Origin: an uncultured Planctomycetia bacterium
Lineage (GTDB): Bacteria; Omnitrophota; Gorgyraeia; Tantalellales; Tantalellaceae
Reading direction: 5' to 3'
Assembly (NCBI GenBank): GCA_964482475.1
Contig: CAYZXR010000001.1
Coordinates: 37,997 to 101,996, forward strand
Length of the DNA: 64,000 nucleotides
Positions 18,001 through 51,000 of this stretch are shown in pieces. Positions within the stretch are counted from its first letter, which is position 1; every line of letters starts with the position of its first letter. A program made the translations under genes and the position numbers. The notes under the pieces were generated by a model. It saw only the letters and a list, made by a program, of their open reading frames with translations, was not told where the DNA came from and searched no databases.

Positions 18001-21000
18001 ATTTCAAGTTCATTAGCAATACTTTCCAATTCTAAAACCATAGCGTCAAATTGATCCAAAAGACTGGCTTGTTCGTTCAAGAGCGTACCTTTCTGAGCAT
18101 TGAGACTCGCAATGGCTTCTTCAAGAATAGCAATTGCTTCTTCATTTCCTTCTTCATTTTCTTCCTCAGCCAAGTCTGCCTCCGCCAGCAACAACGCGGA
18201 ATTTACCTCATATATCTCCAGATCTTTATCTTCCAGCCAGGTAATCAGCGAATCCAACTGGGTCTCTTCCGTGTGCACATCGGCACTCAATAAAGATATT
18301 TCGTCGACAAGAACAGCAATCGCATCATTGTAATCTTTCGTATATGCATTCAACTCATCCTCAAGTGTATCAACAACGTCTTTAGCTTCTCTCACTACAT
18401 CTTCCACTTCTGTCGCATAATACGCGTCCATCTGCATGGCAACGCCTTCCCTCATAGACTCAACTACTGCATACAGTTGTTCTAAATTGTCATATTCTGC
18501 TTGAACCTTCGTTGCTATCTCAGAATCTTGAATAATCTCATATACCGACCTAGCAAGCTCCGCATTACATCCGGCAAAAACTATGTCACTTAAGCCCTCT
18601 ACAACAACCTTATATCCCTCTATCTTGTTCCAAATTGTTGAAGCAGCAGTATTGTAATCCAATTCTGCGTCTATCGCATTTTCCTCAATGATCTCAGCGT
18701 CAAGAACCTCCTGTGCTACTACGGATAGTCCCTCTTCTATTTCTATCAGCTTTGGTTCCAACAAGCTCTTTGTCACATTCAATACCTCTTCTTCCTCACC
18801 TTCGGCAACATCAAGTTTTTCCTCTATCTCGGCTAATTGGAATTGAACGTTCAGATGTTTCAGCTCAAGCTCCCCTAATTCCACACGTTTCTGATCCGCA
18901 AATGACTTGACTAAATATGTACCTCCTTGATCCCCGTTTAGAGTATCGATAACAGTCTCCGTCCCTCCAGATACGAGACTATCGTATATACTGAAAAGCG
19001 GGGACAAACCACTTAGCCTGTCGGCTATCTCAACACTTACCGCGACAAGCACGTCTCTTTCCGCAACCATCTCACCCTTTAACTCACTGTCAACCTGTGG
19101 ATCATAGGTGGAATCTGACCATACAGTACTTATAACGCTATTTATGATATCAATTTCGTCATCTGTCGACGCTTTCCGCAACTCCAAAGAGGACCTTAAA
19201 CTATCTAGTTCCGCTGTTAGGCTGGAAGCATATCCTACTGAATCAGATCCGTTTGCCGCGGAATCTACCTCGATCTGCATGGTCTTCACATTAACAAGTT
19301 CATCAAGTTCATCAATTGACAAGTCTCCTGAACTTGAAAAATTGGTCACCGCTTTATCGTATAGCCATGAAGTTATATCGGAGAACGATTCTGTCGACAA
19401 CTCGTTCAAAGAAGCCAATGCCGCGTCCATAGATTGTGCTGTAGATCGTGAATACACTTGATCAACATATGCTTTACCCTCGGCGTTATAATAATACCCT
19501 GTTACTGAATCAATCGTTCCATATGTGAACTGTGAAACCCCGGCATTTGCCATTTGGGTATATATTTCCGATACATCAGACGCGTTAACAATACCGTCAT
19601 CGTTTACATCTTTATGAAATCTCAGCATATCCGCATACAGATCGAAATCTGTACTATTGACAACACCATCATTATTTATATCCACTTTTTTCAGCTCTGT
19701 TCCCGTTTGAAAATTCTTCGTATCCATATAGTCCAGCAAGTCCATCCATACCTCTTTATCCACTTCGTTCCTCGCCCCGTCACCATTTATATCAACAAAA
19801 TTGTTCAATGAATTGCTCAGCATGTCTATATCCACTGTATTAAGTTCCCCATCATTATTCATATCAGCTCTGATCTTCTCTTCCGCACTAACAAACCGCT
19901 GGCCCGCTTCCATAGTGGATATCGTTTTAACCTGTTCCTGTATATCTGTTAACACTTGCTGAACAATCGTAGCCATATCAACACTATCAGAAATTATAGT
20001 ATTAGACGGATATTTCAACGCCAGAGATTGCATAGGATTAAAGTAATCAGTCACAGCGTCAACTATGGCATCTATCCTCGCGCTCAAAGAAATAGCTGTC
20101 AGGGGACTTTCATCAATATAAGACCGCAGATTCTCCGCCATTTTCAAGTTCACATTAATCGTGGCTAACTTATTCAGGGCTTCTTCTTCCGCACTGATGA
20201 TATTTTTTATAGTTTGCTCGATATCCGACTGTTTAACCTCCAAAGCATTAACTTTCATCTGCAAAGAATCTCTATAACCAGCTACGGTTGCATTAGACGT
20301 GTCAAGTGCCAAAGCATCGTTAGCGGCATCCAGAATACTTTGCGCATAGATCAACATGTTATCCATCATCTCTTCATACGTTTCCGCTACCACGCTGACA
20401 GGAACAATATCGAGTTGAACCTGGATCGCGTCCGCTTTAAAGATTAGTTTATCGACAAGTTCGGGCAGATACCCCGCTTTTGCCTCTACCGTAAGAGCGG
20501 CATCATATGCCTTGAGTTCAGCGTCAGAAAGAACCCTATTCGCCCCAACATCTTCCTGAGAGATTAAAACCTTTCCTGAATAAATTTGTTCAAAATTATC
20601 TACTGTCATAACATAGGAATATCCATTTGACTCATAAGCCACCTCTCCATCATCAATATTTTCTATTGAAACAAAATGATCTCGACCATTGTTCTTAACC
20701 AAAGCTATAGCCGGCAATGTCACCTGTGATAGATCGCCCAAACTAATCTCTACGCCTTCCAAGTCAGCTCCACCAGCTTTTGCCAAACTCTTAAGCGTAA
20801 ACATCGTTGTCTCAAACTGTCCGGCTTCTGTCATATTGATCGCACCTGACAAGATATCCGAAATGATTGATGCCGCTGAGAGCATCTCTTCTTTGTCTGC
20901 GTCAACATTAAAATAATCGCCGAGGACATAAGACGCACAGTTTATTATCTGTAGACCCTGGTTTGTAAGCCATGAAGCTATGGTGGTTATCCCGCCCGTT

Positions 21001-24000: not shown

Positions 24001-27000
24001 TGCGCGATCGTCATTTGTTCTATATTACCGCTTACTATATTAGCGTAATTTTCTATCATCGCGGACAATTCAACAGATCTCGTTTCCGCGTTCTGGATCG
24101 CTGAAAAAGTTATATTCAACCCTTCAATATAGACAACCGCATCAGCGATAACTTCCTGAGCAGCATCATTAAAAATGACCAGTTCGGGATTATCTGTCAC
24201 TAGTTCGGTAAGAGCATCGGCCGAATCATCAGCCAACATGACAAGCTTAACGGACAAAGCTACTAAGTCTTCAGCTGTAGCGCTATTATGTTCTTTATCC
24301 AGCCCTTCAGAAAACATCTTCGCAAGAGTAACATATTGAGTTATCGCGCTTACAGTCAGGTCATTATGATCATCCGGAACATCAAACTCAACTGTTGAAG
24401 ATCTTTCCGTTATATACGAAACACCGTTCTCGGACGTAATCCTGAGCGATTCGCCCCATGCTTTATCTGAATTACTCCCGACTAGATTGTTCATCTGCGT
24501 TTCATAATTTGAAGCATCCAAAACCAAAGAGTCTATAAGATTCTTGAGAGCTATCCTTTCTTCTTCACTTATAGATAAATCAAATGCTTTAATGGCCAGA
24601 TCCAGCACCCTGTCTAATTCATCGATATTATCAAGTATCTCCGCGGCTTCGTTATTGAAAAGATATGACTCATTAAGCCTGTTTTCTATTAACGCGACAG
24701 CAGCCGTCACCTGTGTCAATTCATCTAAAATAGTCAAAGCATCCGACGTGCCCGCGCTTAAAGCGCTATTGTAAACCTCTTCTACCAATTCCTTGGCTTC
24801 TTGGGCAAGATACAGCATAAGCTCTATCTCATCAATTGATAACACGGTCAAAGATTTCGCTTGCATCCCTTCAGCTATTAATCTGTTCTGTTCAACCAGT
24901 TCCAGCGGGGTCATCTCGATCGTTCCCGGTTCAAGTTCATCGACTAACTGATTCGCAATTTCCAAAGAAACGTTCAACCTTGCCAGCTCATTATTAAGTG
25001 CGCCTATGAGTTCCTGAGCTTCAGACGGGCTTGCCATCATCATGCTCATCCTCAGCACTATATCCGCCAACATCTCTACTTCCCCAACCATATTCTGTAT
25101 CGCACTTTCATCCGCAGCCGCTTCACGCCATTCTAAAACTCCTTCACCCCTAAGTAGCGTCATTTCCTCTGCTATGGCGGCGGCATTATTAGCGTACGAT
25201 ACGGACAATTCCACCGGATTTGTTCCCCATATCTGGAACAATGCCTCAATATCCGCCGCGTCTACCATACCATCTGTGTTAATATCATATGACGTCAGAG
25301 ACCCAATAGACTCTTGCAGAATACTCGCATCAATACTTGTCAATTTTGAGTCTTTATCAAGATCCGCAGCCACAACATCTTCAGCACTTATGTCAAATTC
25401 CGAAGCTTCCACTATCCGATTCAGAGTGATAACATCTGACTGGTCAATCATATTGTCCTTATTGATATCGATACGATTATCCATCGCGTTTTGTAACGAT
25501 ACTTTATCATCGTTGTCTATAATTCCATCGCCGTTGATATCCGCATCGCCTGTCCAACTGGTATACAAGTTCTTCCTGTAATAAGTATCTAACCTCGCGA
25601 CATCCTGGGCATTCAACTGTCCGTCTCCGTTAATATCTTTACCGCCATAGGCGTTTTCAACATACAGAAGTTTATCTTTGTTATCCACCATGCCGTCATT
25701 ATTTATATCAGCTTTTTCAACATCTGCTATACTGACACCGGCCTCTTCCTGCATTATCACCGTTCTTTCGACTTTAGCGACATCGTATTCTGTAAAAACA
25801 CCGTCACCATCCACATCCTTTATACCCGCAAGCGCGCCTTCCAGAATGTCCGCGTCTTCATCGCTGATCTGTCCGTCATCATTGATGTCTGATAATATGA
25901 TATCGGCTTCAGTATACTTATGACCAAGTCTCTGATACAACATCGCGTCTTCTAAGACAGCGATATCCAATCCATCAACCACACCGTCAGACACGCCATC
26001 CGCACCACTTACGTCGGATATTGAGTAATTATTGTAAGCATTTCTTAACGCCTCAAGATCACTTACATCAACCATTCCGTCGTTATTGACATCCAAAAGC
26101 TCGTCATTTTCTGTTTCTTCTTTCGTAACATCCAAATTATTAAATTCAATTATATCACTGAATCTTACAATATCATCTATGTCCAACTCTCCGTCACCAG
26201 TCACATCGGCGATAGAAGCCTCCTCCAGCATCCATTCAAGTTTCTGTTTATCTGAAATGGTAACCTCTTCGTCACGATCTATGTCAGCCGCCCTGATCTC
26301 ACCCGGCATCGGCATATCTGATTCATAGATATAATCGATCATATTTGTAAGAGTTTCGATATCCGCGGAATCCACATAATCATCAGCATTCATGTTAAAG
26401 AGATTAGCCTCCATATCAATGGTATGATAATATAAATCTTCATACGCATTATTATCTAAGTCGTTCACAATACCGTCTTTATTGATATCCGCGAACTCTT
26501 TCTCCTGTTCGGTAACCTCGTACGCAATAGATTCCCGTATATCTGAAAGCCGATTTATATCCGCCTCGTCTACACTACCGTCATCGTTAACATCGAACAT
26601 CTTGCGCTTATCAACCATCGTTTTATATATCTCGTAATCATTTTCAGTAAATTCACCGTCACCATCAATGTTCCCAGCTGTTGTCAAATCTTCCAATGAT
26701 ATTGAGTAACCCAGGTTATAAAAATCGATGATCTGCTGCATCGCTTCGACATCTTCTTCATTCGCTTTCTTGTCACTATTGAAATCAACTTTGTGCATAC
26801 TTCTTAACAAGTTAGACACATAATCATAATCAGTATAATCAACCTGCCCGTCATCATTTGTATCTGCTTGCATTATCGCTTCGGCATCTACATCCAGTTC
26901 TTTATCCCTAAGAATATCAATTACCCTGTCCACATCGCTGCGTCCTACCACACCATCACCGTCAACGTCTCTACCTTCCAACGCACTAATCGCGTTCTCC

Positions 27001-30000
27001 ACGCTTGTCCAGTCCGTCTCATCGACAACACCGTCACTATTGATATCTGCCTTGCTATAATCCGCAAGCTGCATCACGTCACCCTTCCTGATCCCCTGCA
27101 GAATATCATTCATAAGAGAAATATCTTCTTGATTGACCAGATCATCATCCGTAATGTCGGTTTCATCCACAAACGCCAAAGCCTGGCTTAAGGCGACCGC
27201 ATCCAGATCATCAATAACCCCGTCCTCATTGATATCCGGTCTGCCACCATCGGCTATCTTGACCTCCGAAATACTATAAATCGTCCCTTCAAGCTCAACT
27301 CTTCCTGTTTCTGTATCGGAAATATACAAGTTGCCATCCGCGTCAATAAAAGTACAGGTCCCGTCATCGTTCATCTTATAGCTATACTCCACGCCCTGCA
27401 CATCAAGAACACCGTCGTATACATGTTCACTTAATTCGTCATATTCCTCAACGATACTAATACTACCTGTGTAGATATCTTTCGTTATGTTATATACCCT
27501 GCCTTCTATGTTAATCTTGTCTATATCAGCATCCGTTGTGTACGCTCTATATCCATCATCCAGCGTATATGTACCGTCATAATTATCAAGCACCTCATAA
27601 AGCACCCCATTAAGATCAACCAGTTGTTCCATTATCGTAACACTTGTCAAATGGCGCTCCTCCAACTCATAATGTCCGGTCAAAGCGTCATATGAAATAT
27701 GAAAAATACCACCGTTCCATTCTATCTCATTTGTCACAAGATTACTTACAGAGCCTCCCAGACTAAAAGTACCATCATCATTCTGTCCTATGCCAATTCC
27801 ATTTTTATCAGATGGATTAAACTTGATAACTTCACGCCCTGAAGCATAGTCAAATCTTGACTCAGCGTAACGGTATTGTTCAACTAAAATGATCTTTCCC
27901 GTTGCATAGTCAGTCTCTATATCATACGTTCTACTTCCCAATATAACCGTTCGATTTATCTCACTTAGGATTTCCCCTCCACTATATGCCGCAAACAGAT
28001 ACACACCATCCGGATTCGCTAGAACATCATAGATTTCATCGTCTACCTCTATAGTCTGATCAGCGACTAAATAGCTCTCAACATGTGATTCAACTAGCTT
28101 AATATCTCCAGTTATTTGATCAATCACGATATCATACACAGTTCCCGCAACATTAACTTTCGTCGCACCTTTGCGCGTTGTATACTCATCTTCTTCGCCC
28201 TCAAAAGTATACGAACCATTTTTATGGTTTTTAACCCTGTAAAATTCACCATTCAGAGATATCACCTGGTCATATACCATCCGGGCCATATCAGCAATCT
28301 TTTTAAGAGTTACATTCCCGGAATTGTTAACGCTGATATCGTATTGCTCATTTCCGATTGTAACAACTCCATCATACGTGCTTACATACTGTTCTTCGTC
28401 CAACACGAAAGTATATGTTTCATCCTCGTTGTTTACAACATCCACTGTCAGGCCTTCAAGATCGATCAACTGATCTGCCAAATGCTCACTTGTCAGATAC
28501 GCGCCTTCTCGTTTTTCCAAAATCACATCGCCGTTGTGTTCTATCGTCAGATCATATATTTCTTCGTTAATCTCAACTATATTCAGCCCGGGATAACTAA
28601 TATAGGTATGTTGTCCGTCATCAAAAATATATTGACCATTACCCAAATCATTTACCGCGTAACGAATACCATCTAAGACAATAACTTCATCCGCGACAAA
28701 AGAGCTTGTTGTACTACCCGCTTCAACCAGTTCTAATTCTATTCCATTGATTACACCTAAAGCCATATCCGCCAGGACATCTGTGATCCTGGATACATCT
28801 TCCGAATTAACTTGTCCATCACCGTTTATATCAACTTGTCCGCTAATCGTGTTCGACAACAGCCTCATATCCTGATCGTTCACAACACCGTCATCGTTTA
28901 TATCCGCTTTGTTCAAAGTCCCGGGCTGCAATTGATCTAATTGTTCCATGCTACTCATTGCTCCCTGCAACTGAACCAAATCATCGACATCATATACACC
29001 ATCGGCGTTAAAGTCGCTTGTATCGACAAGAGGATAATCCCTGATCGCTTCACGGAGTCTGGCAGTATCTTCGGTTGTCACTGACCCGCTTCTGTCAATA
29101 TCCGCGCGCCTAACCATATCCTCAGAGACTCCTAGAGCCATAGCTTCCGCAATTTCCTCCATACGCTGTACATCCTGCTCGTCAAAAACACCACTTAGAT
29201 CAACATCCAGATCCTGGCTCAGTATTTCCTGTAAATCATCAGCATCGGTTTGATCTAGAACGCCATTATGGTTAACATCGGCGCTTTCAACCACGTTCGG
29301 CTGTAGCACCGGAGCCACCAGCTCGCCGTTATTGACGTTATCGTCGGTATCGTCGTAGTAAACCATCTCGTTCGGATCATACAACTTGTTATAAATATCC
29401 ATGAAAATATCATAATCTTCTCTTTCCGTCTGACCACTTCCATCAATATCATACTTATTACGCACAATATCATAGAGATCATTGGCATCCGAAAAATTTA
29501 CCGACCCATCTTTATTCACATCCGCTATTGCTTCCCAATCATTAATATTGTCAGTTGTGATCTTTGCTCCTCCTCCAAGAGGATCTTCATACCACATTGT
29601 CTTTTGGATGCTTTGAATATCAATGCTGTCAACTCTGTCATCACCGTTAACATCTTTATAGTTTCCGCTTATTTCCTCAAATAGTTCGATATCATTTTTA
29701 TTTAAGATCCCATCCTTATTAAGATCAGCTTTTTTTACGACTTTCGGCTGCTGCAATTGTCTTTTATATACATCCGACAAAGCATATGTCGTACCTTTGA
29801 TATCAACACTATCTTCACCTGTCTCTTCGTCGTAATAGCTATAATAAGTGTTTATCTTGTCCTTGAACCTATATGTACCATCTTCTTCATCTCTTGTGAC
29901 CCTATAGTTAGTGCCCTCGATTACAACCGTGTGTTCATCATCCGTTCTTTCGGTATCCGGTCTTTCGACTAAAGTTACTTTGCCTGTTTCAATGTTAGTT

Positions 30001-33000
30001 GCGATCTCATACAAAACCTCATCCAGCGCAACTAACTCAACATTCAACCCGTCTTCAAGCGCAAAATAGCTTCTTTCATATAAACCTTCTTTTGTCTTAA
30101 AATTATGCGTGCCATCGTCCATGTGTGTAACCTGATAGTCCACTCCCATAGCCCTAATTGACTCATCCGCTGTTTTCGTACTAACAATGATCGGACTGTC
30201 TATTACGGCATTGCCCTCATCACCTATAGTGATTTCCAGAACCATACCCTTAATATTAAGCAACATTTTCTCATCTTCCAGATAGCTAAGGTATTCGTTC
30301 GTCCCGTCATTAAACGAATAGATACCGTCAGAAATGGTTGTCACTATGTATATAGTGTTATCTATCTCAAGCGTCTGGTTATCAACTGTCTGGCTGCTTA
30401 ATGGAAGGACTCTTTTAAGAATAACAGCCGAATCAATCTCAGAAATAGCGTACTTGACACCTTCAAGATCAACATAATGCGTTAAGCCTTCTTCATAGCT
30501 GTCAGCCGACATCACTCCGTTAAATATCCTGTATCCTTCGTCCTGTATAGAAACATTGTAGTCAATACCATCCAATCTTATCACGGTATCCGCGGCTTTC
30601 ACACTTGAAGAATCCACTGATTCCAAACTCAATGTTCCATCAGCGTCTTCAATCACTGTTAAAGTTACTTCATCAATCGTTACCTGACTTTGATCATTGC
30701 TATCAGCGAATATCTCTCTCTCGATAGCTATATCACCCGAAACTTGATCAAGATCAATACTGTATTCCTTATCGCGAATATTGACCTCATTGTTTTCATT
30801 TAAATAATAAAACGTTTTTTCAACAAACTGACCGAATTTTATACTGCCTATCTGCAAAGGACAGTTGCTATCGCTATTCGTCCAAACCAGTTTAACTTCA
30901 TTCGTTCCTGACCCCAGATCAATGTCAAGCATGCCCGTAACAAACTCCCCACCATTCACCGGAACTTCGATCGTTCCTTGCTGTTCACCATTGACATATA
31001 CGGCAAAATTGTATTTGTAAGTAGAATTATCTCCGTAATGATATCCGTCATAATAATAGGAGCTGACCGGTTCCAGAACCTGCCTTGTATCAACGACAAG
31101 ACTATGTAACCCCGCTTTGTCCACATCTAACATATACGTTAAATACGCGCCTGAGCCCGCAGTATTAAGCATATTGTCCGAGATCGTCCAATCCGAACTT
31201 CTGTCAACAGTATCCACAACATCCTGTTCTTCAAAAACCTTTTCCATATCCAACGGACTTCCTGAAGCAACCTGTATTCCATAACACCCGATTTCGTCCT
31301 GAACCCATTCAAAAGTGTAATCATCAATCTCAATCGTATTATCTCCGACATTTACACCTTCCTCCGTTTTACTTACCTTGTATGTTCCATCACCGTTATT
31401 CAAAATGTCATATTCCTGACCATCTACTGACACCTTCTGATCATACGTCTCAAAGCTTCCAAGATCCGGCTGACTCAAAATAACTTTATCACTCACAATA
31501 TCTTTTTTAATATCGAATGTAACCCCTTCAATGTCTATCTGTCCTGTATCCTTATTGCTAGTATAAACATCAGTATCCTTATCCATAACATTGAACGCAT
31601 ATAAACCATCGGAATCTGTAATCAGATTGAATATTTTTCCATCAAATTCAAAAGAAGCGCCTTGTGTAAACTGAGATTTTTGTGTTGTAAATATCGTGTA
31701 ATCTTCTTCGTTGATCCTAAAATCAGCATTAAAATCCACCGGATCATCGCATGCTTCTATAAATATACTTTCCACTAAAAGGCCTTCATCAAGCGAAGGT
31801 TCATCCATGCTTTCAAACTTTAATATGTGCCAGCCCGCTTCCAAATAAACATATTCTTCGGCTAACTCGAGTTCATTGATATTCCTCAACACTTCAAGTT
31901 CCGTGGTTTTCTCGCCGTCAACATAGATCATAAAAGAAGAATATTCCGGTTCCGGCGAATCCTTGACGCCCCAATACTCTACCCATTCATCGGATGAACC
32001 TGTTTCCTTAACACCTATATGTTCTATTTCAATGTTACCGTAGTTTACACCGCTATCAATCACCGGATAGAAACAGAAATTACGGATCGTCCCGGACCAA
32101 TTCGCGTTGTCCGCCATGTCGATATAATAAGTATGATATTCCCCGTCAGGTATGATGAGAAAATCTTGATACCCGGCTCCGGAACTGCTGTCCCAATACA
32201 ACCGCGCGGTGGTACCCGAATCGGCTTTATATTTAATTTCAGCGTATTTATTGGTGTCTGCGTTAACATCAATCGAATACGGACTGGCGAAACGCGGACT
32301 CGTACCCGTAATCTGGGCTGATATAGCTCCTTCCGGAGTATAGGTAAACGAACTCAGGCCGTAATATGATGACGCGTACCATGGTTCATCATATGTGCCA
32401 CCGGACCAGTTCACTCTATATTCATAAACCGTATCATTCTTAGCCGACAGTCCAACTTTATGATACCCTGATTCTTCAATGTTCACTTCATAAGTGATCG
32501 GCAAATATTCTCCATACCCATACATGTCGTAGCCCGATCCTAACGTGCTCACTTCAGCACGGTGCAAAACATCGCCGTCCTTTACCCACTCATGGTAGCT
32601 TTCATCCCAATAATAGTCTTCATGATAATAGTCTTCATCAATTGCTCTTGAAGACCAGAGATCCGCGGCATTTATCTCTATCCTCTGCTGGCTAATGGCA
32701 TTCCGAACTATAGCGTCATCATCGTCTCCCACTATGCCATTATTATTCAGATCAATCTCTAACTTCTTAACCAACTCAACTCTTCCATCCGTTTCGTCCT
32801 CAAGCACCAAATAAACCACATCATCGATCTCAACATTATCAACAGGAATCTTATCTTCCTCAACAATAACAAAATTATCTATTCCCCATGATGCTCCCGT
32901 TGCCCCTTCATTAAGTGTTGATCCGAATTCTAACACTAATTCATCTGTACTGTTTGTAACTAGAATGGGTATTTCTACATGTTGTACAAAATCATTATAA

Positions 33001-36000
33001 TTACTGCGGGTTCCTTCCAGATTGGATGTACCCTGGCTATACGTGTGTACCTGGCTCCAAACTTCCACCCCGTTAACTTCTAGATATCCTTTTTCTCCAG
33101 CATCCCAACCATCAATAAAATAATAATCAAAACTTATTGTTGCTTTGCCATATTCAGAAGTCTGATTAAAAGTCTTTTTAGCAACAACATTTTGTCCAAA
33201 ATTGCCATATCCACCCAGGATAGTCTCTCCACCGGCCACAGTTGTTTCTGTTCTGGTCCAATCAGCTACCGTTCCATTGAAATTTTCACTATACTTGACC
33301 GGTAAATATGGCGTATATCTACTTCCTTCAGAATCAAGCGCATAGTACTCATCATCAAGCCTCTGTCCCACATAATAAACAGTGCCATCAAGGTTGACTT
33401 TCTCTAATTCTGATGTATCCATATATTGCGTATGGAACATATCTAGGTCTGCTTCATTAACAACTGAATCATTGTTCAAGTCAGATTTTCTTTCGTACGT
33501 ACCGGAGGTTATCGCGGCCAGAATAATATTTTCATCCTCTATGTCTATCTGTCCGTCCTCATTTACATCCGCCGTTAGATATTCGACCAATGAAACACTA
33601 CCCGTTTCGTTTCTCTGGACCAGATAAACCGTACCATCGATCTCAACATTGTCGGCTGTACCCTTGCCTTCCGCGGCAATAAAGAAATTATCCAATCCCC
33701 ATGACTCATTTGTCGCGCCTTCGTTGACTGTTGATCCAAATTCTAATACCAATTCATCTGCATAATTCGGCACAGTGATCTCTACATGCTGCACAAGGTC
33801 GTTATAGGACCACGTACCGGACAAATTAGACGGACCCTGACTATATGTGTATGTCTGGCTCCAAACTTCCTCACCGTTAATTTCCAGATAACCTTTTTCA
33901 CCATCCCAGGAATCAAGAAAATAGTAATCAAAGCTTATCGTAACTTCATCATATTCGGAAAACTGGTCAAAGATTTTTTCGTCCGTCACGTCCTTGCCAA
34001 ATTGACCATATCCGCCCAGAATAGTCTCTCCACCTGCCACAGTTGTCTCTGTTCTTGTCCACCCGGACACATCATCGTTGAAATTTTCAGAATCTTCTAC
34101 ATATGGCAAGTGTGGCGTATACCTATTGTCTTCAAAATCAAGCGCATAATACTCACCATCAAGCCTCTGTCCTACATAATAATCAGTACCGGCAAGATCG
34201 ACTTTCTCTAATGCTGATGTATCCATGTATTGCATATGGAACATATCTAGGTCTGCTTCATTGACAACTGAATCATTGTTCAAGTCAGATTTTCTTTCAT
34301 ACGTACCGGCGGTTATCACGGCCAGAATAATATTTTCGTCCTCTATGTCTGTCTGCCCGTCCTCATTGACGTCCGACACTAGGTGTTCGACCAATGAGAC
34401 ACTTCCCATCTCATTTTCCTGAACCAGATAGATACTACCATCGATCTCAACGTTATCAGCGTTAACGAAACCTTTCGCCTCAAAAACCAGATTATCCATT
34501 CCCCAAGATTCGTCCGTCGCCCCCTGATTAAGTGTCGACCCGAATGTTAATGTCAACTCATCCGCCGTGGCCTTGGACATAGTCAGCTCTACATGCTGTA
34601 TAAGGTCATTCCAGCCACCCGTGCCGGACAAGTTGGTCGGGCTCTGACCACATGAATGCGCCTGACTCCAGACCTCTTCACCGTTAATCTTTAAATATCC
34701 CGCTTCTCCATCCCAAGAATCAATAAAATAATAGTCAAAACTTATCGTCACTTCCTCGTATTCGGAGAGCTGGTCAAAGGTTTTTTCGGCTATAGCACCT
34801 GAACCGAATCTGTTGTACCCACCTAAAATGGTCTCTCCACCAACCACGGACGTTTCCGTTCTGGTCCAACCGTCAATTGTCCCATCAAAATCATCAATGT
34901 TCCATATCCCGGGTGCACTTGGTATATACTCATTCCCCTCTCTATCAAACGCGTAGTATTCACCGTCGATACGCTTCCCTATATAATAAGAACTACCGGC
35001 AAGATCAACCTGGTTCAATGCTGAAGTATCCGTATATTGCATATGAAAAATATTCAGATCATCATCATTAACAAAACCGTCGGTGTTTATATCCGCAGCT
35101 TCATTGTATATTTCCAGAGCTGATGTCATGATACCCGCGTCCGTCTCATCGACCTGTCCATCTCCATTAAGATCACTTCTTAAAACCTCTGACAATGAAA
35201 TCGTTCCGAGAGACTCATCAACGGCATATGCCCTACCGTCTATTTCGACTATTTGACCCGTTGAAGTACCTGTTGCTTCATTATTCCGTAATGTGTATTC
35301 ACCGGAAACATCATCATAAATAAGTGCATACTGAACGCCATTAGCAGTCACGCTATTGTCTGTCAAATGTTCGGAGAAAATGGTAAAATCAACATTTTCT
35401 GGAGTATCTCCCGCGACATAGTATCTCCTATCATTAATCTCCAGATAACCTTCCGCATCCGGTTTAATGGTGTCTATACCGTCATTGAAATCGAATGACC
35501 CGGAACCATCCGCAACTACGGTTAGCAGGTCGTTACCGGCAGATATTATTTCTTCCGTAACCTCCGTTGCTGCTTTATTGGACAACAGCTGCAAAGGTTC
35601 CAGTCCAGCTTCGACATTAGCTATCTGATATTTCTCTCCGCCAATATCAACATACCATTCCCCGTTTTCCTGATAGGGATCGTACGATTGTCCCGAATTC
35701 TGCGAATAGAACTGATACCAGTAAATACTTCCATTATACTCCTCAAAATTCCAGGAGAACGTCTCTCCATTAACTATAAGGGTGCCTCCCTTATAATAAC
35801 CATCACCCCAGTCATCGTTCCACGATATCTGTTCGTTCTCAGAAACTCTGACAAGTCTTGTAATAATCTCAAGATTTTCCAAATTATCGCCTACAATATC
35901 GCAAATAGCACCGTCAGTGAATTCGACAGCATTAGTCTCAGGATTGCTTCTAAATTCGTTCAGACCATCAGAAAACACATAAACTACAACACCGCCTACC

Positions 36001-39000
36001 TCTTCCATTGTTATCATGTACATCTCATCGGAAACGGCTATAACCCTGTCAGCTACGTGGGTAATAGTTGTTCCCGGCTGGCTTACTACAGCAATATCGG
36101 CAGCTGTTGTTCCGTTTATACCATAAACCGTATCTCCTATTTGGACTGACTCGCCACTAACACATGTGTAAATATCCCCAGTATTTGTATTTTCAACAGA
36201 ATATACACTAGTCGCATCATCATGATTTATCGTGTAATAAACACCGTCAAGAGCTATCCAAGTCTGTTCGCCCACCGTATAAGTAACCGGTTTTTGTGTT
36301 AAAATAATATTGCCTGATTCATTTTCAACAATATCGTACGTAACCATATCGATAAATACTGTGTTACCCTCGATACTTGTAATAGTTGAATTATCAAAGG
36401 CGGTAAACACATAAACCCCTTCCTCCGTTTTTTTAACGTCATAAATCTTATTGCCTACTTTAAGAGCTTTTACATCGCTGATCGTACTGATTACCGGAGC
36501 CTCCGCGAGAATGACCTCGCCTGTTTCGGCTACTTGATCGATCAGATATTTTGTCCCTTCAATAACAACTTCGGAAGCGTTTACACTTGTATAACTAACA
36601 TCGCCGTTAGTAAAACCAAGCTCGCCTCCGTCCTCCGCGATATCATAGACTTTATTCCCTACTTTAACCGCTTGCGTATCGTTAACTGTGCTTAATATCG
36701 GCGCCTCCGCGAGAATGACCTCGCCGGTCGCCGCTACTTTCTCAATTTGATATTTTGTTTCACCAATAAAAACATACGTAGAATCTACACTCGTATAGCT
36801 CGCGTCAACACCAATAAAAACTAACTCATCGCCCTGTTCTACAACATCGTAAACACCACCCGCTACCACTATCGCGTCAACACCAATATATTCACTCTTT
36901 ATTGGCCTTTCAGATATCAAACTTACTTCAAGTGTTTCAGGATTCTGATAGATATAATACGTTTTATCTCCGACCACTATCGTACCCTCTTCAGTACTTT
37001 GAACTTCATAGTAATTGGACCCCAGCGTATAGGTGCCATCATCGTTAACAAAAACCATGTAATTTGTTCCGTCAATCAGGACCATCTGGCTATTAACTGA
37101 TTGAATACCTGCGGCTAATTCCATTAAACTGACGATATCCCCATCAATGGTAATACTGTATTCCACGCCACGTAACTTCACAGTACCGGTTGTACTATCA
37201 CTTTCATAATCGTTTGTCCCATCTGACAAGATTAAAGTCTTTGCTCCCTGGTCATCAAAAGCAACCGTATAGCTATATACTCTGCTATTTAAAAGCATCG
37301 TATTTTCGAGTACCGGTAAACTTGCTATCGGAATTTCATCCAACGTTAATTCATTCTTACTAGGATCAGCGGAAATTCTGTAATACGCCCCCTGTAACAA
37401 TATCCTCTCGGCATCGACATCTATGAAATACTTGTGAGTATCATGTGATAACGTGAAGGTATTATCATCATTCTTGATAGCGTTGTAGGTGATACCCGCT
37501 ACCTCTATAGCCATATCGTACACCATTTCACTCGCTATTTCGACTGCCGCGAGTGTAACGGTATCACCACTAGTTACATTAACCTGATATTTTACTCCGG
37601 CCAGGTCCACAGTCATATCGGCGTCGCTTACATGGTAGTTTTCTCCGTCATCAAAAGCAAAAATATATCCATCACCCTCAATCTTTTTGTAGCTATAATT
37701 TCTTTCATCCACCTTAATAAGCGCATTATCAATATTCTCACTTGAGATAACTTGTTTATTTTCGGCTTTTTCTTCATCAAAGATAGCGAGGTCTTTGTCA
37801 TCGATTACAAAGTCACCATTTATATCCGCCATGTTGACTTTATGATCTGCAACAAATACATCTTTTACCTGCACGCTCAAAGAACCATATTGATCTATTT
37901 CGTTGTAAATACTTGAAATATCCCAACTGATCTTTATTTCATGTTCCCCTTCTGTCAAGTAAAGCTGGCTAAATCCCTCGTTATACTCTTCTTCGGCTTT
38001 AACGCTGAATTTACCGGAATATATACCATCGACCCAGACCTTGAAATCGTAGGAATAATCCAAGAAAACTTTATCATCACTGGCATCATAATAATCTTTC
38101 GGGCTGTCTATGTCTTTATATGCTTTCGCAAATAGACCCACATCAAACACACTTGATGAATCAACATCAACTTTATAGTTCATCTCGTTGATAGAGTATT
38201 TATCGGTTCCGTCAAAGATCGTTTCCTTATCATAATTATTATAATTCTCCATCATTACCGGATCTTCCGAACGCGTCATGTAAGGATCGTAATAATCATC
38301 AGATTCCGAAACTTCAACATAGTCATTTACATTTGCGTAAAGTGTGTCACCGTCTGAATAGAAGCCATATGTGTCTTTGGCGCTTACATACTGACCAAAC
38401 CCATCGTTAATTTTATACCGATGTTCAGAATCGTCCTCATCAACAGTAACTGAATAGAATCTTCCATCGATCTCAAGCTTCTGAACTTCATATGATTTAA
38501 GGCCTTTTTCCTGAAGCGTAATAATATCATTTTCGTCTTGTTCCATATTGTAAATAACTCCGTCAAGACCGATTGTCGAAGTTGCCGGATCGCTATAATA
38601 AATGCTTTCACCGTCAGTGAAATAATATACATTTGCTTCTGGGTCTTCCCCATATTTGTAATAAACTAGACTAGTTCCGTTAACAAAAATCTCTATTGGA
38701 TCATCACTTACCGGTGACCCCGCCATTACAGCAAACTCTTCACCGGCAACTTCAATTATGTCAGCCGTTTTACTTGACGCATACGCTTCAGAAATTACCA
38801 CATCCGCGTTGTCCGGACCGGTCGCCGTTATGAAATACTTTTGGCCCTCTATTTCTATCTCGGATCTATAAAGCGCAAAAGCACCAATTCCGACATTTCT
38901 TCCATCACGATCTCTCGGATAATAGAGCATACTTTTTAACGATGTATATGTATCTGTACCGTCCGTTAGCGTATAGTATTTTACATCGTGCTGTTTTTGC

Positions 39001-42000
39001 TCATAAGTATTTTGATCGTGTGCCTCAACACACGCTTCTAACGTCGCGGTAAATTCGTAATAAACACCATTCAGAACCATTCCCCCGGTCTCAAGCTTAT
39101 ACTCATTATGTTTTTCTGTTAGCTGGATATCACCAGATTCTGACCAGGCGACGCGATAATCTTTTCCCCCTATGTTTACAACTTCAGTATCGTCCTCTAT
39201 TTTACTCAAGTAACGCATATGGTCATTATCCCATCTTATAAAAGTATGAGTACCATTATCGTTGAGCATCACCTCATAATAATATCCACCGAGCTCAATA
39301 GCGGTATCCGATATCATCTCGCTTTCATACGCGCTTACTCTTTCAAGCAAAACTTTTCCCCTCGCGTCGGTAGTGATTGAATACCCCTTGTCATCGATGA
39401 CAACAAGATTGCCAACATCGTTACTTGTATAACTTGCTCCCTCTTTCTCATACGCAGCTGTAAAGGTATAGCTGCCGTCAGTCCCCTCAGTCACAACAAA
39501 GAAATCATCACCTATTGCTATGTCCGGCAATGTAAAACTATTGATATAATGTGCCATCAAATCAGCGTTACCGGGATTGTTTTCGTCAACTACAACATCA
39601 TACGTAATGCCATCATCTAGGGTAACTTTATTTGTAAATGGGTTAGTCTCATATTCCTTCGGATAATAGGAAGCACCGAAATCAGAATAATTCATATCCC
39701 TCGAACCCGAACCTACAGAAACGGTATAAGTACCTTCACTTCTTGACGTCATGTAAACCTCACCATCAAGTTCAATACCCGGACCAACTTCGGTGATATA
39801 TTCAACTCGTCTCAAAGCCAGCTGACCTGTTTCGGTATCCTCTAATACATAATATTCATGACCATCAAGATAGACCGTACTTGATTCGGTAAGTGAGTGA
39901 GTATCCGTTCTGTCACTTATGTAATACTCTCCGTTATCGGCCTTAAATACATCGTAGAATTCGTTTGCACCATCCAGCTGGACAGTATTCACATATGTCA
40001 CCGAAGGCTCTTGCTCCATTCTTCTGATAACCACTTCACCCTGTTTATCTTCTCCATCCAGGGTTTTAATGTTATATGAATATGTCACTATATAATAGTG
40101 GTTGTATGCTGATTCCGGCGGAGTATCTTCCATGCCATCCCAACCCGCCTTAAGCTCTTTGATTTCTTGAACAGCCCTGTCATTTTCAATATACTCAGCG
40201 CCTTTAACGTTCTCACTAGTGAGTTCCTGTACTGTAAGCGTCACATTACCTGTAAGCTGTTCAATCTCAACCGTATAAACTGTACCATCTTCAGTATCAG
40301 GAACCTTAATAGTTTGAGTTTTAGGATCTGTGAAATACGCTTCACCTGCGCTATCAGTAAACTTATAGTAATATACTTCCTCTTCATCAGTATAAAGCTC
40401 GTATACATCTTCTGCCTGTTCGATGGTAAAGATATCGTTTCCTATCTTAATTAACTCTTCCTTATACGTGGCAGTCTTTGGCGTGCCGTCTTTTACTACT
40501 GCGTACTCTTCTGTTACCGGGTTCTGGAATATTCTATACGTATTGCCTCCGGCTTCAAATGTATTGGTATATTCATCATAGTGGAAAGTCTCCTCGTTTT
40601 CCGCCTTCATAACATCGGCCAATGTGTATACCTTCCATGTATCGTCACCATCAACTTTCTCGCCTTTCATATACTCCAGCAGAGCAGTCGGTTTATTTGA
40701 ATAGTAGCTATAGTTAGCATCATACCCGGTATCTAAATAGTAGCTCTCATCTATTACACGCGTCCCGTCTATCTCGGAACCCAGACTTACATCAAAATTC
40801 CAACTTGTAGCAACGACCTGATCTAATGACGCAAGACCATATGTTGCATGCTCAACCAGACCTATCTTGCCGGTTTCCGCGTCATAAGTAATATCGTAAT
40901 CCACCCCATTTAAGCTAAACCCTTTTCTATAGGATTTTGCTTTGTTTAAATTAGTTGTCACTTCATTCCCATCATCAAAATAATAACCTACGTCATTGTT
41001 ATATTGAGGGCTGAAAACTCTCTCGATATCTGTTTGATATATCGTAACCGTCTTCGTGGGTTGATAGAAGTTACTAGTCGCATATACTGTCATCTCATTA
41101 GCATCTTCATACATGTACGGATCATAATAATAATCATCCATATCGTTTATCGCATACTCGTAAGTATACGAGTTTGGCGTACCGAACAGAATATCGTTAT
41201 TTCCCTGATAGTTAGAATCACCGTAAATATCGTTATTATACCGACCTGTAAAGGCCTTTAGCAACGGATCAGTCATCCCCATCATCATATAGTCAGCATA
41301 CGCATTCTTGTTTATACCTTTATATTGGTCTTGTGAATACAAGTAATCCGCATACCTGGCAACCATTTCCATGGCGTTATAATCTTTAACCCATAGGTTA
41401 TCGTATGTATCACTCTCACCATGTGTATAAAAAAGATCATATAGCTGTTTGACGTCTTCTGATGACTGAATATAAGGATCTTCATCGCCTACCTTCAACG
41501 ACTCAGGCGGCCAGACATCATAATATGAACCATCATAAGCGTCCGGATTTAGATACGCTTCTTGATATAGATCAAGCATCCCAGTCTTATACAAAGTGTA
41601 CCAACTATACCAAGAATAACTACTCCATTGATCTCTTGTTTCAATATCCTTGGTTACATCACGAACTTCTATATAATCCATCGCGTCTCCCGCGACATGC
41701 TTTTCTTTTAATGTGAGCTTGCCGGTTTCAGGATCTGTTCCTACTTTATATTCCTTGCTGCCGACAGTAACTTCTCGCGCGGCGACATACTGATTATCTC
41801 CTTCAGAAAATACATACTCCCCATGCTCATTTTTTGTCACGCTATAAACACGTTCCTCATCTCCGAGCCTGATCAAATCCTTACTAATAAGAATACTGCT
41901 TGTATGTATCTCTACCAAACTCACAAAACCAGTGACATTATCGTAGTTCACGTTATAAATGCGTCCGTCACCAAGCGTCACCGTATTAGTGTCTATATCA

Positions 42001-48000: not shown

Positions 48001-51000
48001 ATTTCATAGAAAGTATAAATATCTCCTTCCTTTATCACACCATATGCTTCAATAAGCCCGTCATTTGCTATCGCTATCACTTGATCATAAACAACTTCGA
48101 CAGGGATCTGTTTACTAACTATTATGTTGTCCAATCCCGACCCATCAATATCATAGGTCATGCCCTGGATAATAACTGACGTTCCGTCCTCACTGCTGGC
48201 AAATGTATCCACTCCATCATTAAACCTGTATTGCTGACCATCAAAAGTAATTGAGTAAACTTTGCCTCCAAGAATCACTGTTTTTCTGCTACTAGATTCA
48301 ATGGCTTCTTCACCACGGCTTAAACTATAGGTACCGTCCTCGGATCTAGCCAGTTCGTATACGACGTCACCGATTGAGATCTCATTTTCATTAGCAGTTA
48401 TTATTTCGCTTGTGCCATCATTAAAGCTGAAAGACCCGTCATTATTATAGGTGTACGTATAATCATAATTTTTGTGATCTACCCCTACTACTCCTTCAGT
48501 CTGCACTCCACCTTCTATCGGCACTATAACGTAATCACCATCATTATTTTCCTTATACCGGTAACCGTCAGGCATAATAACAAATCCTTCAGTATCGATT
48601 AATCCGTTGAAATCATATGTAGCGCTTGTCTGTGTATCTGCCTGCACAACCTGGCCGTTTTCATCTATTGAACATGGAATAAATTTATATCCATATTCAT
48701 AGAACTCATAGCCATTCTCGCTATATGTCATTTTTGTATAATGAACTCTGTAATAGGTACCATTCACTTCTATCATCTGAACGGAACTACTGTTGTCACT
48801 CCTTTCCACAAGTGTAATCGCACCGGTTTCCTCATCTTCCTCGATATCGTACCTTACCCCATCCACCTCAATATAATTAACCGCGTCGCCTGAGGCATTC
48901 TCCTGTATAGCTGCCTGCCCCATAGCGTCTAAAATAATCTGCCTGTCCACGTCATCTAATAAGCCGTCATCATTAATATCTCCGGCAATTTTTTCTCTCA
49001 AGGTTACGTCACCTGTAGCAGGAGTATAAGATATCTTGTACTCCACGCCGTCAATAACCACATTATCATACCCATTTATACTGGAATAATAATTTTCTCC
49101 ATCGGTAAAAATAAACCCATCCTGCGAAGTGTTATTTATTGTATAGTTTTTACCATTGAGCCTTATTGCTTTTGTCGCAAGCGAGATTGAAATGCTTACC
49201 TTGGAATCCAAATATCTTTCCTTAAGAGCGATCTTACCTATAGCCAGATCCGTTATCACATCATAAACATCCCCTTCGATAACCACGACATCCAGACCTT
49301 TCTGGCTTATATAGCTCTCCTCACCATCATCAAAGACATATGTCCCATCTTCTTGTTTAGATATGATATATTGTTTGCCGCTGAGCGAAATTATCTCATC
49401 CTGAACAACAATACTTGAAACATAAAGTTTTCTTAAGGAAATATCACCCGTGATCTCGTCAATTTGTATCTTAAATGTTGTACTGCCGACTTTTACAACT
49501 GTTTCCCCTTCGGCATCCAGTCTACTATCATTTCCAAAACCGTCGTAGTAAACCGTATATGTGCCATTCTGGTTGTCTCTGATGCCGTATGTCTTACCCT
49601 CAACATCAACAACTTCATCAAAAATGCTTTCACTGATCTCAGGATTCTTATCTAATGCCACCCTCCAGAAATTGATCAGATCCATAGTCTGTTTTACAGA
49701 ATCAAGGTCACCCTCGCTGACTTTTCCGTCTTTATTAATATCCCGCGCTATCTCTAACGCACCTGCCAGTAGCTGTGAATCAGTATAACTAACCTGCCCG
49801 TCACCGTTAATGTCCGCATTTGCAAGTTCTTCTTCATCAACCTTTATCTCATTTGATCTGATTATCTCAGAGATCCTATCCAGATCTCCCTGGTAAACAT
49901 AGCCGTCTCCATCAACATCAACATTATAATCCCGCACTTCATTGAACAGATCTAAATCGCCAGGATCAACTACTCCATCCTTATTAAGATCTTTCGCTGC
50001 TATGTCTTCCAATACCTCTTGAGTACCAGTATTCATTACAGAATTTATATAGGCTAACAACGTATTTACATTTGGAATTTCTTCCTGTCCATCGTTATTA
50101 AGATCCAGATTCAGTTTATAGATATTATCCAAAGTCGCTTTATATTGTTCGATATCGAGATTGTCAACATCTCCGTCACCATTAATATCCGCATTTGCAA
50201 GTTCTTCTCCTGTAATGCCGTATGCCAAATATTCTTTCACCACCTGCCAACGAGCCAGATCATCTTCATCAATTCTTGTGTCGTTATTGATATCAACGTT
50301 ATTATCCACCATGTCTTTCAGATTCTCCAGATCATAGGTATTAATAATCCCGTCATCATTAACATCAGCGTTATTCAAGTCAGAAATATTCAATGAGCTG
50401 TACTGCAACATAGTGTTAATTGATTCATTCATCATATCAGCTTCTGCCTGGATTATTTCACCATCGCCATCCAAATCAAAACTGCTAAAATCAAAAACAT
50501 CCATGATGTCGACTAAACCCTGCTGATCAATGTTTTCGTCAAGCCCGGCACTTGAAATATCCATTTCTTTTTCAGTCTCGACCCCCAGTGAATCAACCAA
50601 CCCTTTTAAAACCGCAATATCATTATCATCCGCTATCCTATTCTTATTTAGATCAAGCTGTTTCGTGATTTCCTGAGCCAAAAATTCGATATCAAACTCT
50701 TGTGTTTCCTGAGACGCACCAACAAATTCATCGATTATGCCCTGAATAGTTTGAACATCTCCTTCATCAAAATTCAATCTCTCGACCAAGCTTATCTCAT
50801 CTGTGTCAATATCCCTGTTGACGGTATACGCGCATTCGTCCACGATAACACTCTTAGTTAAAACATCGCTTGTAAATTCTTCATCTGTAGATACATCTGT
50901 AAATGAATAGGTTCCATCTTCGTTTTCGGAAATGATCAGCTCCCGACCCTCTAAGGATATACTATTAGAGGAAACCGAGGAGCTCTCTTTCTTTTCTTTA

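Follow-up and report, generated by a model that had tools for sequence, protein, structure and literature searches.

A tandem dockerin and jelly-roll module within a giant reading frame of an Omnitrophota bacterium

The DNA analysed here is a stretch of 64,000 nucleotides (nt), hereafter the window, from an assembly deposited as an uncultured Planctomycetia bacterium and placed by GTDB in Omnitrophota (GCA_964482475.1, contig CAYZXR010000001.1, positions 37,997 to 101,996). A single minus-strand reading frame fills it, and within this frame a module of about 268 amino acids (aa), combining a type I dockerin with a beta jelly-roll domain, is repeated three and a quarter times. We favour, with moderate confidence, a reading in which the array is part of a giant acidic surface protein, goes back to an old duplication followed by one gene conversion tract, and would serve in multivalent, Ca2+-dependent adhesion.

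A direct-repeat search found six overlapping families within 32,789–35,074, whose copies start 801–813 nt apart. The repeats correspond to three consecutive in-frame units on the minus strand (32,841–35,264), 807, 804 and 813 nt in length, here lettered in the direction of the protein and followed by the beginning of a fourth:

34,458–35,264, minus strand: unit A, apparently the oldest copy (aa 9,579–9,847 of the open reading frame, ORF)
33,654–34,457, minus strand: unit B (aa 9,848–10,115)
32,841–33,653, minus strand: unit C (aa 10,116–10,386)
32,613–32,840, minus strand: partial fourth unit of 76 aa (aa 10,387–10,462), matching positions 1–77 of the module hidden Markov model (HMM) with an E-value of 3e-8

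The tandem triplication of a module of about 268 aa, on which the original prediction had centred, is thus borne out. The partial fourth unit retains the N-terminal hairpin (DNVEID..VYLV) and one Ca2+ loop and lacks the second loop, the linker and the beta domain. In a chunked self-BLAST of the 21,332-aa frame, the array is by far the strongest internal repeat (535 bits, 67% aa identity over 402 aa), the next best scoring 183 bits. The array escaped Tandem Repeats Finder, whose period limit of 500 is shorter than a unit. The sole match of this program in 30–38 kb is a 15-nt tandem repeat at 32,610–32,638 (1.9 perfect copies of ATAATAGTCTTCATG); it sits at the distal edge of the partial unit, and the protein sequence there is …DEDYYHEDYY…. 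A short-period internal repeat, with an offset of 69 aa and 32% identity over ~400 aa, is found just upstream of the array (~36,270–37,600; aa 8,801–9,242).

Each module comprises, in this order, a short three-stranded beta element, a type I dockerin, a second short beta element and the C-terminal jelly-roll domain. The original prediction had described the beta part, missed the dockerin half and drawn no connection between the module and the giant ORF spanning the window. Pfam places Dockerin_1 (PF00404) at residues ~28–72 of each unit, with scores of 31.6 bits for A, 20.2 for C and 16.3 for B. A type I dockerin is expected to contain a duplicated segment with two EF-hand-like Ca2+ loops (ligands at positions 1, 3, 5, 9 and 12), each with a helix after it. 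All six loops of units A–C fit the pattern D-x-N-x-D-x3-[DN]-x2-D, and both the pattern and Pfam support the following assignments:

35,058–35,174, minus strand: predicted dockerin Ca2+ loops of unit A, DLNGDGQVDETD and DINTDGFVNDDD
34,251–34,373, minus strand: predicted dockerin Ca2+ loops of unit B, DVNEDGQTDIED and DLNNDSVVNEAD
33,447–33,569, minus strand: predicted dockerin Ca2+ loops of unit C, DVNEDGQIDIED and DLNNDSVVNEAD

In the AlphaFold model of unit B, helices follow the two loops (residues 38–49 and 67–77), at a low predicted local distance difference test score (pLDDT). As in the type I dockerins of cellulosomal enzymes, there are two 12-residue Ca2+ loops with helices, ~28 residues apart. 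The cellulosomal domain, however, is a single C-terminal enzyme tag, whereas dockerins are internal here and recur by the dozen in one polypeptide.

The jelly-roll domain is the best-modelled part of the module. The unit B model, built from 47 aligned sequences, has a mean pLDDT of 78; the C-terminal beta domain of 147 aa exceeds 90 and the short three-stranded elements reach ~60–70. Within the frame, the beta domain and its 40-aa linker are confined to units A, B and C:

34,458–34,898, minus strand: beta jelly roll of unit A (aa 9,701–9,847), from the family profile
33,654–34,091, minus strand: beta jelly roll of unit B (aa 9,970–10,115), pLDDT above 90 and a fold like that of carbohydrate-binding modules (CBMs)
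32,841–33,290, minus strand: beta jelly roll of unit C (aa 10,237–10,386)

Foldseek comparison of the modelled beta domain with the PDB gave 109 matches at E<=1e-3. The leading ones are CBM35 of a fungal galactanase, PorU, CBM22, CBM27, CBM36, CBM61, porphyran- and alginate-binding CBMs, MAM and the Kgp gingipain adhesin domain, all at 10–19% identity. The model superimposes on solved CBM jelly rolls, namely 7bys (CBM35 of Pc1,3Gal43A), 4xup and 1dyo (CBM22), 1of3 (CBM27), 1ux7 (CBM36) and 2xon (CBM61), with E-values of 1.7e-5 to 4e-4 and TM-scores of ~0.4–0.57 normalised on the CBM. The likeness is one of fold: identity to these solved CBMs is only 10–19%, and the window domain has no Pfam CBM match. 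It matches no Pfam or NCBIfam model at E<=1, and a search of PDB sequences with the beta-domain profile came back empty. The beta-sandwich, lectin-like character originally attributed to the module therefore holds at the level of the fold, the best PDB folds being glycan-binding jelly rolls. The suggested laminin-G or ConA-like assignment does not: the units have no Pfam Laminin_G or ConA-like match and their top folds are CBMs. One relative (P0021) does contain Laminin_G_3, at residues 218–371, outside its two beta-family domains (1,155–1,298 and 2,157–2,294).

A family profile was built from the three window copies and four weak database hits and searched against 1.84 billion representative proteins. 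It retrieved 4,413 of them at E<=1e-3 and 161 at E<=1e-30. Many members are multi-copy, with up to 11 copies per protein, and some reach 7,122 aa. The conserved motif set of the family, F…GW…LGGY…DSWD.E…ESWG.DN, is kept in the window copies, and bacterial and eukaryotic members alike conserve its polar part (DSWD, E, ESWG-DN). The family spans domains of life, yet it has no Pfam or NCBIfam model: no family of either database accounts for the domain in the 83 members that were scanned, no CBM family appears in their Pfam listings, and P0001, a protein of 186 aa with little beyond the domain, has no match in either. Partners in the 83 members include fibrinogen-like YCDxxxxGGGW proteins (15/83), COLFI, collagen, EGF and the N-terminal domain of Bdellovibrio MAT fibres. 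Among the single-domain members listed, 50 of 56 have the domain at the extreme C-terminus, a position occupied by adhesin heads (PMC10769870). By profile, the window domain belongs to the same family as the C-terminal domains of the fibrinogen-like YCDxxxxGGGW proteins (NCBIfam NF040941), of collagen-like adhesins and of Bdellovibrio MAT fibres. Two differences set it apart. Most family members have two conserved cysteines (TxCG…; …CG…), which the window copies lack, and most have the domain C-terminally or in back-to-back arrays of 150–180 aa, whereas in the window it alternates with dockerins at a period of 268 aa. Multi-copy arrays were also seen in the eukaryotes Tetrahymena utriculariae (4,020 aa) and Hartaetosiga gracilis, a choanoflagellate (3,571 aa), and a Pirellulales protein has the domain at a period of 257–286 aa (the three proteins are P0006, P0010 and P0023).

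The units are considerably more diverged than the ~90% identity originally stated. Over their whole length, B and C share 78% of their DNA and 76% of their aa, A and B 62% and 58%, and A and C 61% and 52%. Only ~300 nt reaches 88%, between 33,301–33,600 and 34,105–34,404 (repeat family D2), with 90-nt windows of up to 96%. The second and third units, numbered in the direction of the protein, are indeed the closest pair and the first is the older, as had been proposed; the accompanying claim of near-identity holds for the 300-nt stretch and fails for the units as wholes. Synonymous divergence (dS) between B and C, estimated by the Nei–Gojobori method, is 0.96 overall; the dockerin part has 0.26 and the beta domain 1.79. 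Between A and either B or C, synonymous sites are saturated (proportion of synonymous differences, pS, ~0.75). The ratio of nonsynonymous to synonymous divergence (dN/dS) is 0.09–0.17 in whole units and in beta domains, and thus all three copies are under purifying selection. These comparisons indicate that the array is an old tandem triplication, not the recent one of the original prediction, in which A would have split off first and B and C later.

Divergence between B and C is patchy. In alignment codons 29–109, 11 of 80 third codon positions are different, as against 97 of 267 overall, a contrast matched by none of 10,000 shuffles (permutation p<1e-4). Over the same 80 codons, A and B differ at 47 of 78 third positions; the similarity of B and C there is thus not site-level constraint. 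The difference between this tract and the beta domain is best explained by later gene conversion, which would have homogenised ~240–300 nt over the dockerins of B and C, and indicates some past exchange between these two units. The third-position contrast, dS and repeat family D2 locate the tract as follows:

34,131–34,368, minus strand: putative homogenised tract, B side, covering the dockerin and the start of the linker
33,327–33,564, minus strand: putative homogenised tract, C side

Two near-identical ORFs antisense to the most similar tract, pointed out in the original prediction, do exist. As mirror images of a conserved tract inside a 64-kb sense ORF, they were rejected as genes:

33,382–33,627, plus strand: 81-aa antisense ORF, most likely non-coding, which reads the dockerin tract in reverse
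34,225–34,422, plus strand: antisense ORF of 65 aa, paralogue of the preceding one

The longest exact run common to two units is 35 nt (B–C), against 13 and 15 nt for the other pairs. Because 22–39% of bases differ and exact runs are at most 35 nt, reads and k-mers distinguish the units, and RecA-type exchange would be inefficient. The array, once described as a strong substrate for unequal crossing-over and assembly collapse, thus appears to be a weak one for the former and a poor one for the latter. An assembly artefact was rejected, the copies being diverged, in frame and under selection. Scans of genome contigs gave no near match to unit B or to the A/B/C alignment, and scans of metagenome contigs with unit B, and of viral contigs, plasmids and phages, were likewise negative. 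Two metagenome contigs matched the degenerate DNA pattern of GGETILGGY; neither has tblastn similarity, and both matches were put down to chance.

The gene that hosts the array can be followed across the entire window:

3–63,998, minus strand: host gene of the module, a frame of 21,332 codons without stops that is open at either window end

The other five frames contain 685–2,781 stops. The host gene exceeds 64 kb and continues on either side of the window. Over the entire window, GC skew is strongly negative (−0.18 to −0.35), which agrees with one coding strand rich in purines. The encoded protein is acidic (10.5% D, 9.4% E and 0.2% C). For the Pfam scan, the frame was divided into five pieces covering the window (for example, pieces of 4,400 aa), and whole-segment matches at E<=0.01 were considered. 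The scan recovered at least 20 Dockerin_1 stretches and an EF-hand_7 match and recognised almost nothing else; per 4,400-aa piece, Dockerin_1 has 7–9 stretches and totals 204–219 bits. Segments resembling dockerins occur in many parts of the ORF, and a regular expression found 94 EF-type loops, concentrated at aa 1,000–5,000 and 11,000–13,000. Dense arrays of dockerin/EF-hand loops were seen at ~49,000–61,000 and ~25,000–31,000, the blocks being weakly alike (25–37% identity). The sole enzyme-like domain found in the window is a Peptidase_C39 match at aa 14,395–14,481 (20,556–20,816; 33.5 bits versus a cutoff of 22). The last 4,132 aa of the frame (window 3–12,398) contain no Pfam family at this threshold, and no DUF1080, GNAT or SecA-like domain was detected in the window as a whole.

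This organisation resembles that of the Dockerin-type giant proteins of Omnitrophota, which were described as having many dockerin/EF-hand repeats, a C39-like domain, repeating CBM35-like/dockerin subunits and a proposed role in attachment (10.1101/2023.11.21.568195). The dockerin-bearing class was recovered again in a 2026 Omnitrophota preprint (10.64898/2026.06.07.730766). Shared features are the many dockerin/EF-hand repeats and the long unannotated stretches, and apparently also the enormous single ORF and the C39-like domain, which in Omnitrophota giant proteins has been proposed to process a propeptide. Judging from the description of the subunits in Fig. 6 of the former study, the pairing of a CBM-like beta domain with dockerin-like helices is shared as well. 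The order of helices differs: here the two dockerin helices are contiguous and the beta domain follows, whereas in the published subunits the helices flank the barrel, a difference that may be only a matter of phase in a tandem array. The published proteins are at least 30,000 aa long (10.1101/2023.11.21.568195), and the frame, with both window ends open, has at least 21,332 codons.

Relatives point in the same direction. Shortly upstream of the array lies a region without any Pfam domain (aa 7,416–8,763; 37,710–41,753). Its BLAST match to PIU40730.1 has 30.6% identity over 1,457 aa and is the best indication of taxonomic origin; this partial protein, which takes up the whole of a 10-kb contig of a Candidatus Omnitrophica metagenome-assembled genome (MAG), contains two copies of the beta domain. 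A word-indexed protein search gave no match for this 1,348-aa upstream region or for the C39 region, PIU40730.1 probably having been hidden by the limit of 8,000 candidates. Two partial Omnitrophota proteins, MFC1643850.1 and MGB2601658.1, carry a dockerin-like segment together with this beta domain, a combination found only in Omnitrophota fragments among the listed hits; in MGB2601658.1 they are joined by Laminin_G_3, DUF1080 and a sialidase-N lectin domain. One giant dockerin-rich frame with a C39-like domain and Omnitrophota relatives thus fits, at the sequence level, the published Dockerin-type giant proteins.

These data suggest the following scenario. After an old tandem duplication, from which A would have separated before B and C, the copies would have been kept under purifying selection, with the dockerin stretch of B and C homogenised afterwards by gene conversion. 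The jelly-roll domains would be ligand-binding heads, probably for glycans judging from the modelled fold, and the dockerins, if loaded with Ca2+, may act together with the hairpins as stiffening connectors. Three heads in series would then provide multivalent, Ca2+-dependent attachment to the surface of another cell, which is also what has been proposed for the Dockerin-type giant proteins. The giant repeat adhesins that depend on Ca2+, for example SiiE and RTX proteins of the MpIBP/LapA type, are similar in being very long acidic surface proteins with tandem beta domains and predicted Ca2+ sites. They differ in that their repeats are Ig-like or BIg domains rather than a jelly roll with a dockerin; in addition, no RTX or type I secretion system signal was seen in the window, and the window protein is several-fold longer.

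Several observations weigh against the adhesive scenario. The dockerins of units B and C score below the Pfam gathering threshold of 22.9 bits, and the dockerin helices are poorly modelled in unit B (pLDDT 35–63). The folds matched by the beta domain are only remotely similar (10–19% identity, E-value ~1e-5, TM-score ~0.5 on the target), and jelly rolls are a generic type of fold, known from domains without binding function as well. The AlphaFold model of two consecutive units has a predicted TM-score (pTM) of 0.39, so that no defined geometry between modules is predicted. Unlike most family members, in which the domain forms a C-terminal tip, the window protein has its modules internally, and the best extended relatives, MAG fragments of Omnitrophota, are only ~30% identical. 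Thrombospondin type 3 and discoidin repeats, also reported for Dockerin-type proteins (10.1101/2023.11.21.568195), are absent from the Pfam matches in the window; the former could lie outside it. Finally, we infer the extracellular location from domain types, composition and a crude hydropathy scan in which the segments resembling transmembrane (TM) helices are far downstream of the module.

Some of these points would suit modules that bind no ligand and are passive extenders or stiffeners, with Ca2+ rigidifying the chain and jelly rolls spacing more distal binding domains. We consider this alternative unlikely, although it is the main rival. In a protein of more than 21,332 aa, the modules occupy internal positions (aa 9,579–10,386); the same protein combines ~94 Ca-type loops with 20% D+E, as is typical of Ca2+-rigidified fibres; and no specific binding-site residues were identified in the module. 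Tandem Ig-like repeats of giant RTX adhesins act as spacers, and proteins of the MpIBP/SiiE type are Ca2+-rigidified fibres. A spacer, however, does not agree well with the family at large, in which the domain forms the C-terminal tip of collagen-like, fibrinogen-like and MAT-fibre proteins, the position typical of binding heads; nor with the nearest solved folds, which are glycan-binding CBMs; nor with the conservation of the polar residues from bacteria to eukaryotes.

It is less probable that the dockerins are true cohesin-binding domains, which would make the protein a platform for cohesin proteins or, with the jelly roll as a cohesin analogue, lead to a cellulosome-like complex or a self-locked 'ladder'. 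The Dockerin_1 matches with intact paired loops and helices are what this interpretation expects, and West-Roberts et al. likened the repeating subunits of one Dockerin-type giant protein to a dockerin/cohesin pair and described a ladder-like macrostructure (10.1101/2023.11.21.568195). But Cohesin is not among the Pfam families listed for the window at whole-segment E<=0.01, and no cohesin appears in the 50 best folds matched by the beta domain, all of them CBMs or other jelly rolls. The two-unit model, of low confidence in the dockerin, predicts neither a locked interface nor the rigid geometry of the published ladder, and it speaks neither for nor against a fixed arrangement of the modules. 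A broader and more novel version of this idea also appears improbable to us: the jelly roll would found an unnamed extracellular family in bacteria, ciliates and choanoflagellates, whose Cys-free version became coupled 1:1 with dockerins as a cohesin analogue, and Ca2+ would zip the modules together, be it within one chain or from chain to chain, to form a rigid ladder or a mesh on the surface. A recent triplication, unstable in copy number among strains and so prone to assembly collapse or expansion that the observed count might be an artefact, is very improbable: the tandem layout, the 300-nt stretch with its 90-nt windows of up to 96% and the signs of past B–C exchange would fit it, but whole-unit identity of 61–78%, dS near 1 or saturated, a longest exact run of 35 nt, preserved frame and dN/dS of ~0.1 do not, artefacts yielding identical copies rather than diverged, selected ones.

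Downstream of the array, a crude hydropathy scan shows one TM-like segment at aa 16,513–16,536 (14,391–14,462). Ala-rich hydrophobic stretches at aa 18,856–19,073 (6,780–7,433) lie where local GC content shows a bump (0.45, 6–8 kb) and where the off-frame ORFs are longest (6,565–7,413); these stretches may serve as a membrane anchor, at a long distance downstream of the module. The Ala-rich region is flanked by a second internal duplication, between aa 18,520–18,744 and 19,088–19,301 (7,767–8,441 and 6,096–6,737), with 49% identity over 231 aa at an offset of 568 aa.

Taken by itself, the repeat is what domain duplication ordinarily produces. Its old copies, the strong purifying selection on them and the single putative conversion tract indicate that such genes grow by ancient, retained duplication and not by recent expansion, in agreement with the nucleotide-repeat survey in the 2026 Omnitrophota preprint (10.64898/2026.06.07.730766). 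What the array offers is a clean, tractable piece of an almost uncharacterised gene class, that of bacterial ORFs above 60 kb. At 268 aa, the module is of a size that can be expressed, and it has a confidently predicted fold and clear predicted Ca2+ sites. There is a modest added value in that its beta domain belongs to a large family with no Pfam or NCBIfam model and no sequence match in the PDB; were the ligand of the module known, thousands of 'hypothetical' proteins with this domain could be annotated. For Omnitrophota, finding that ligand would give the first experimental handle on what the Dockerin-type giant proteins attach to.

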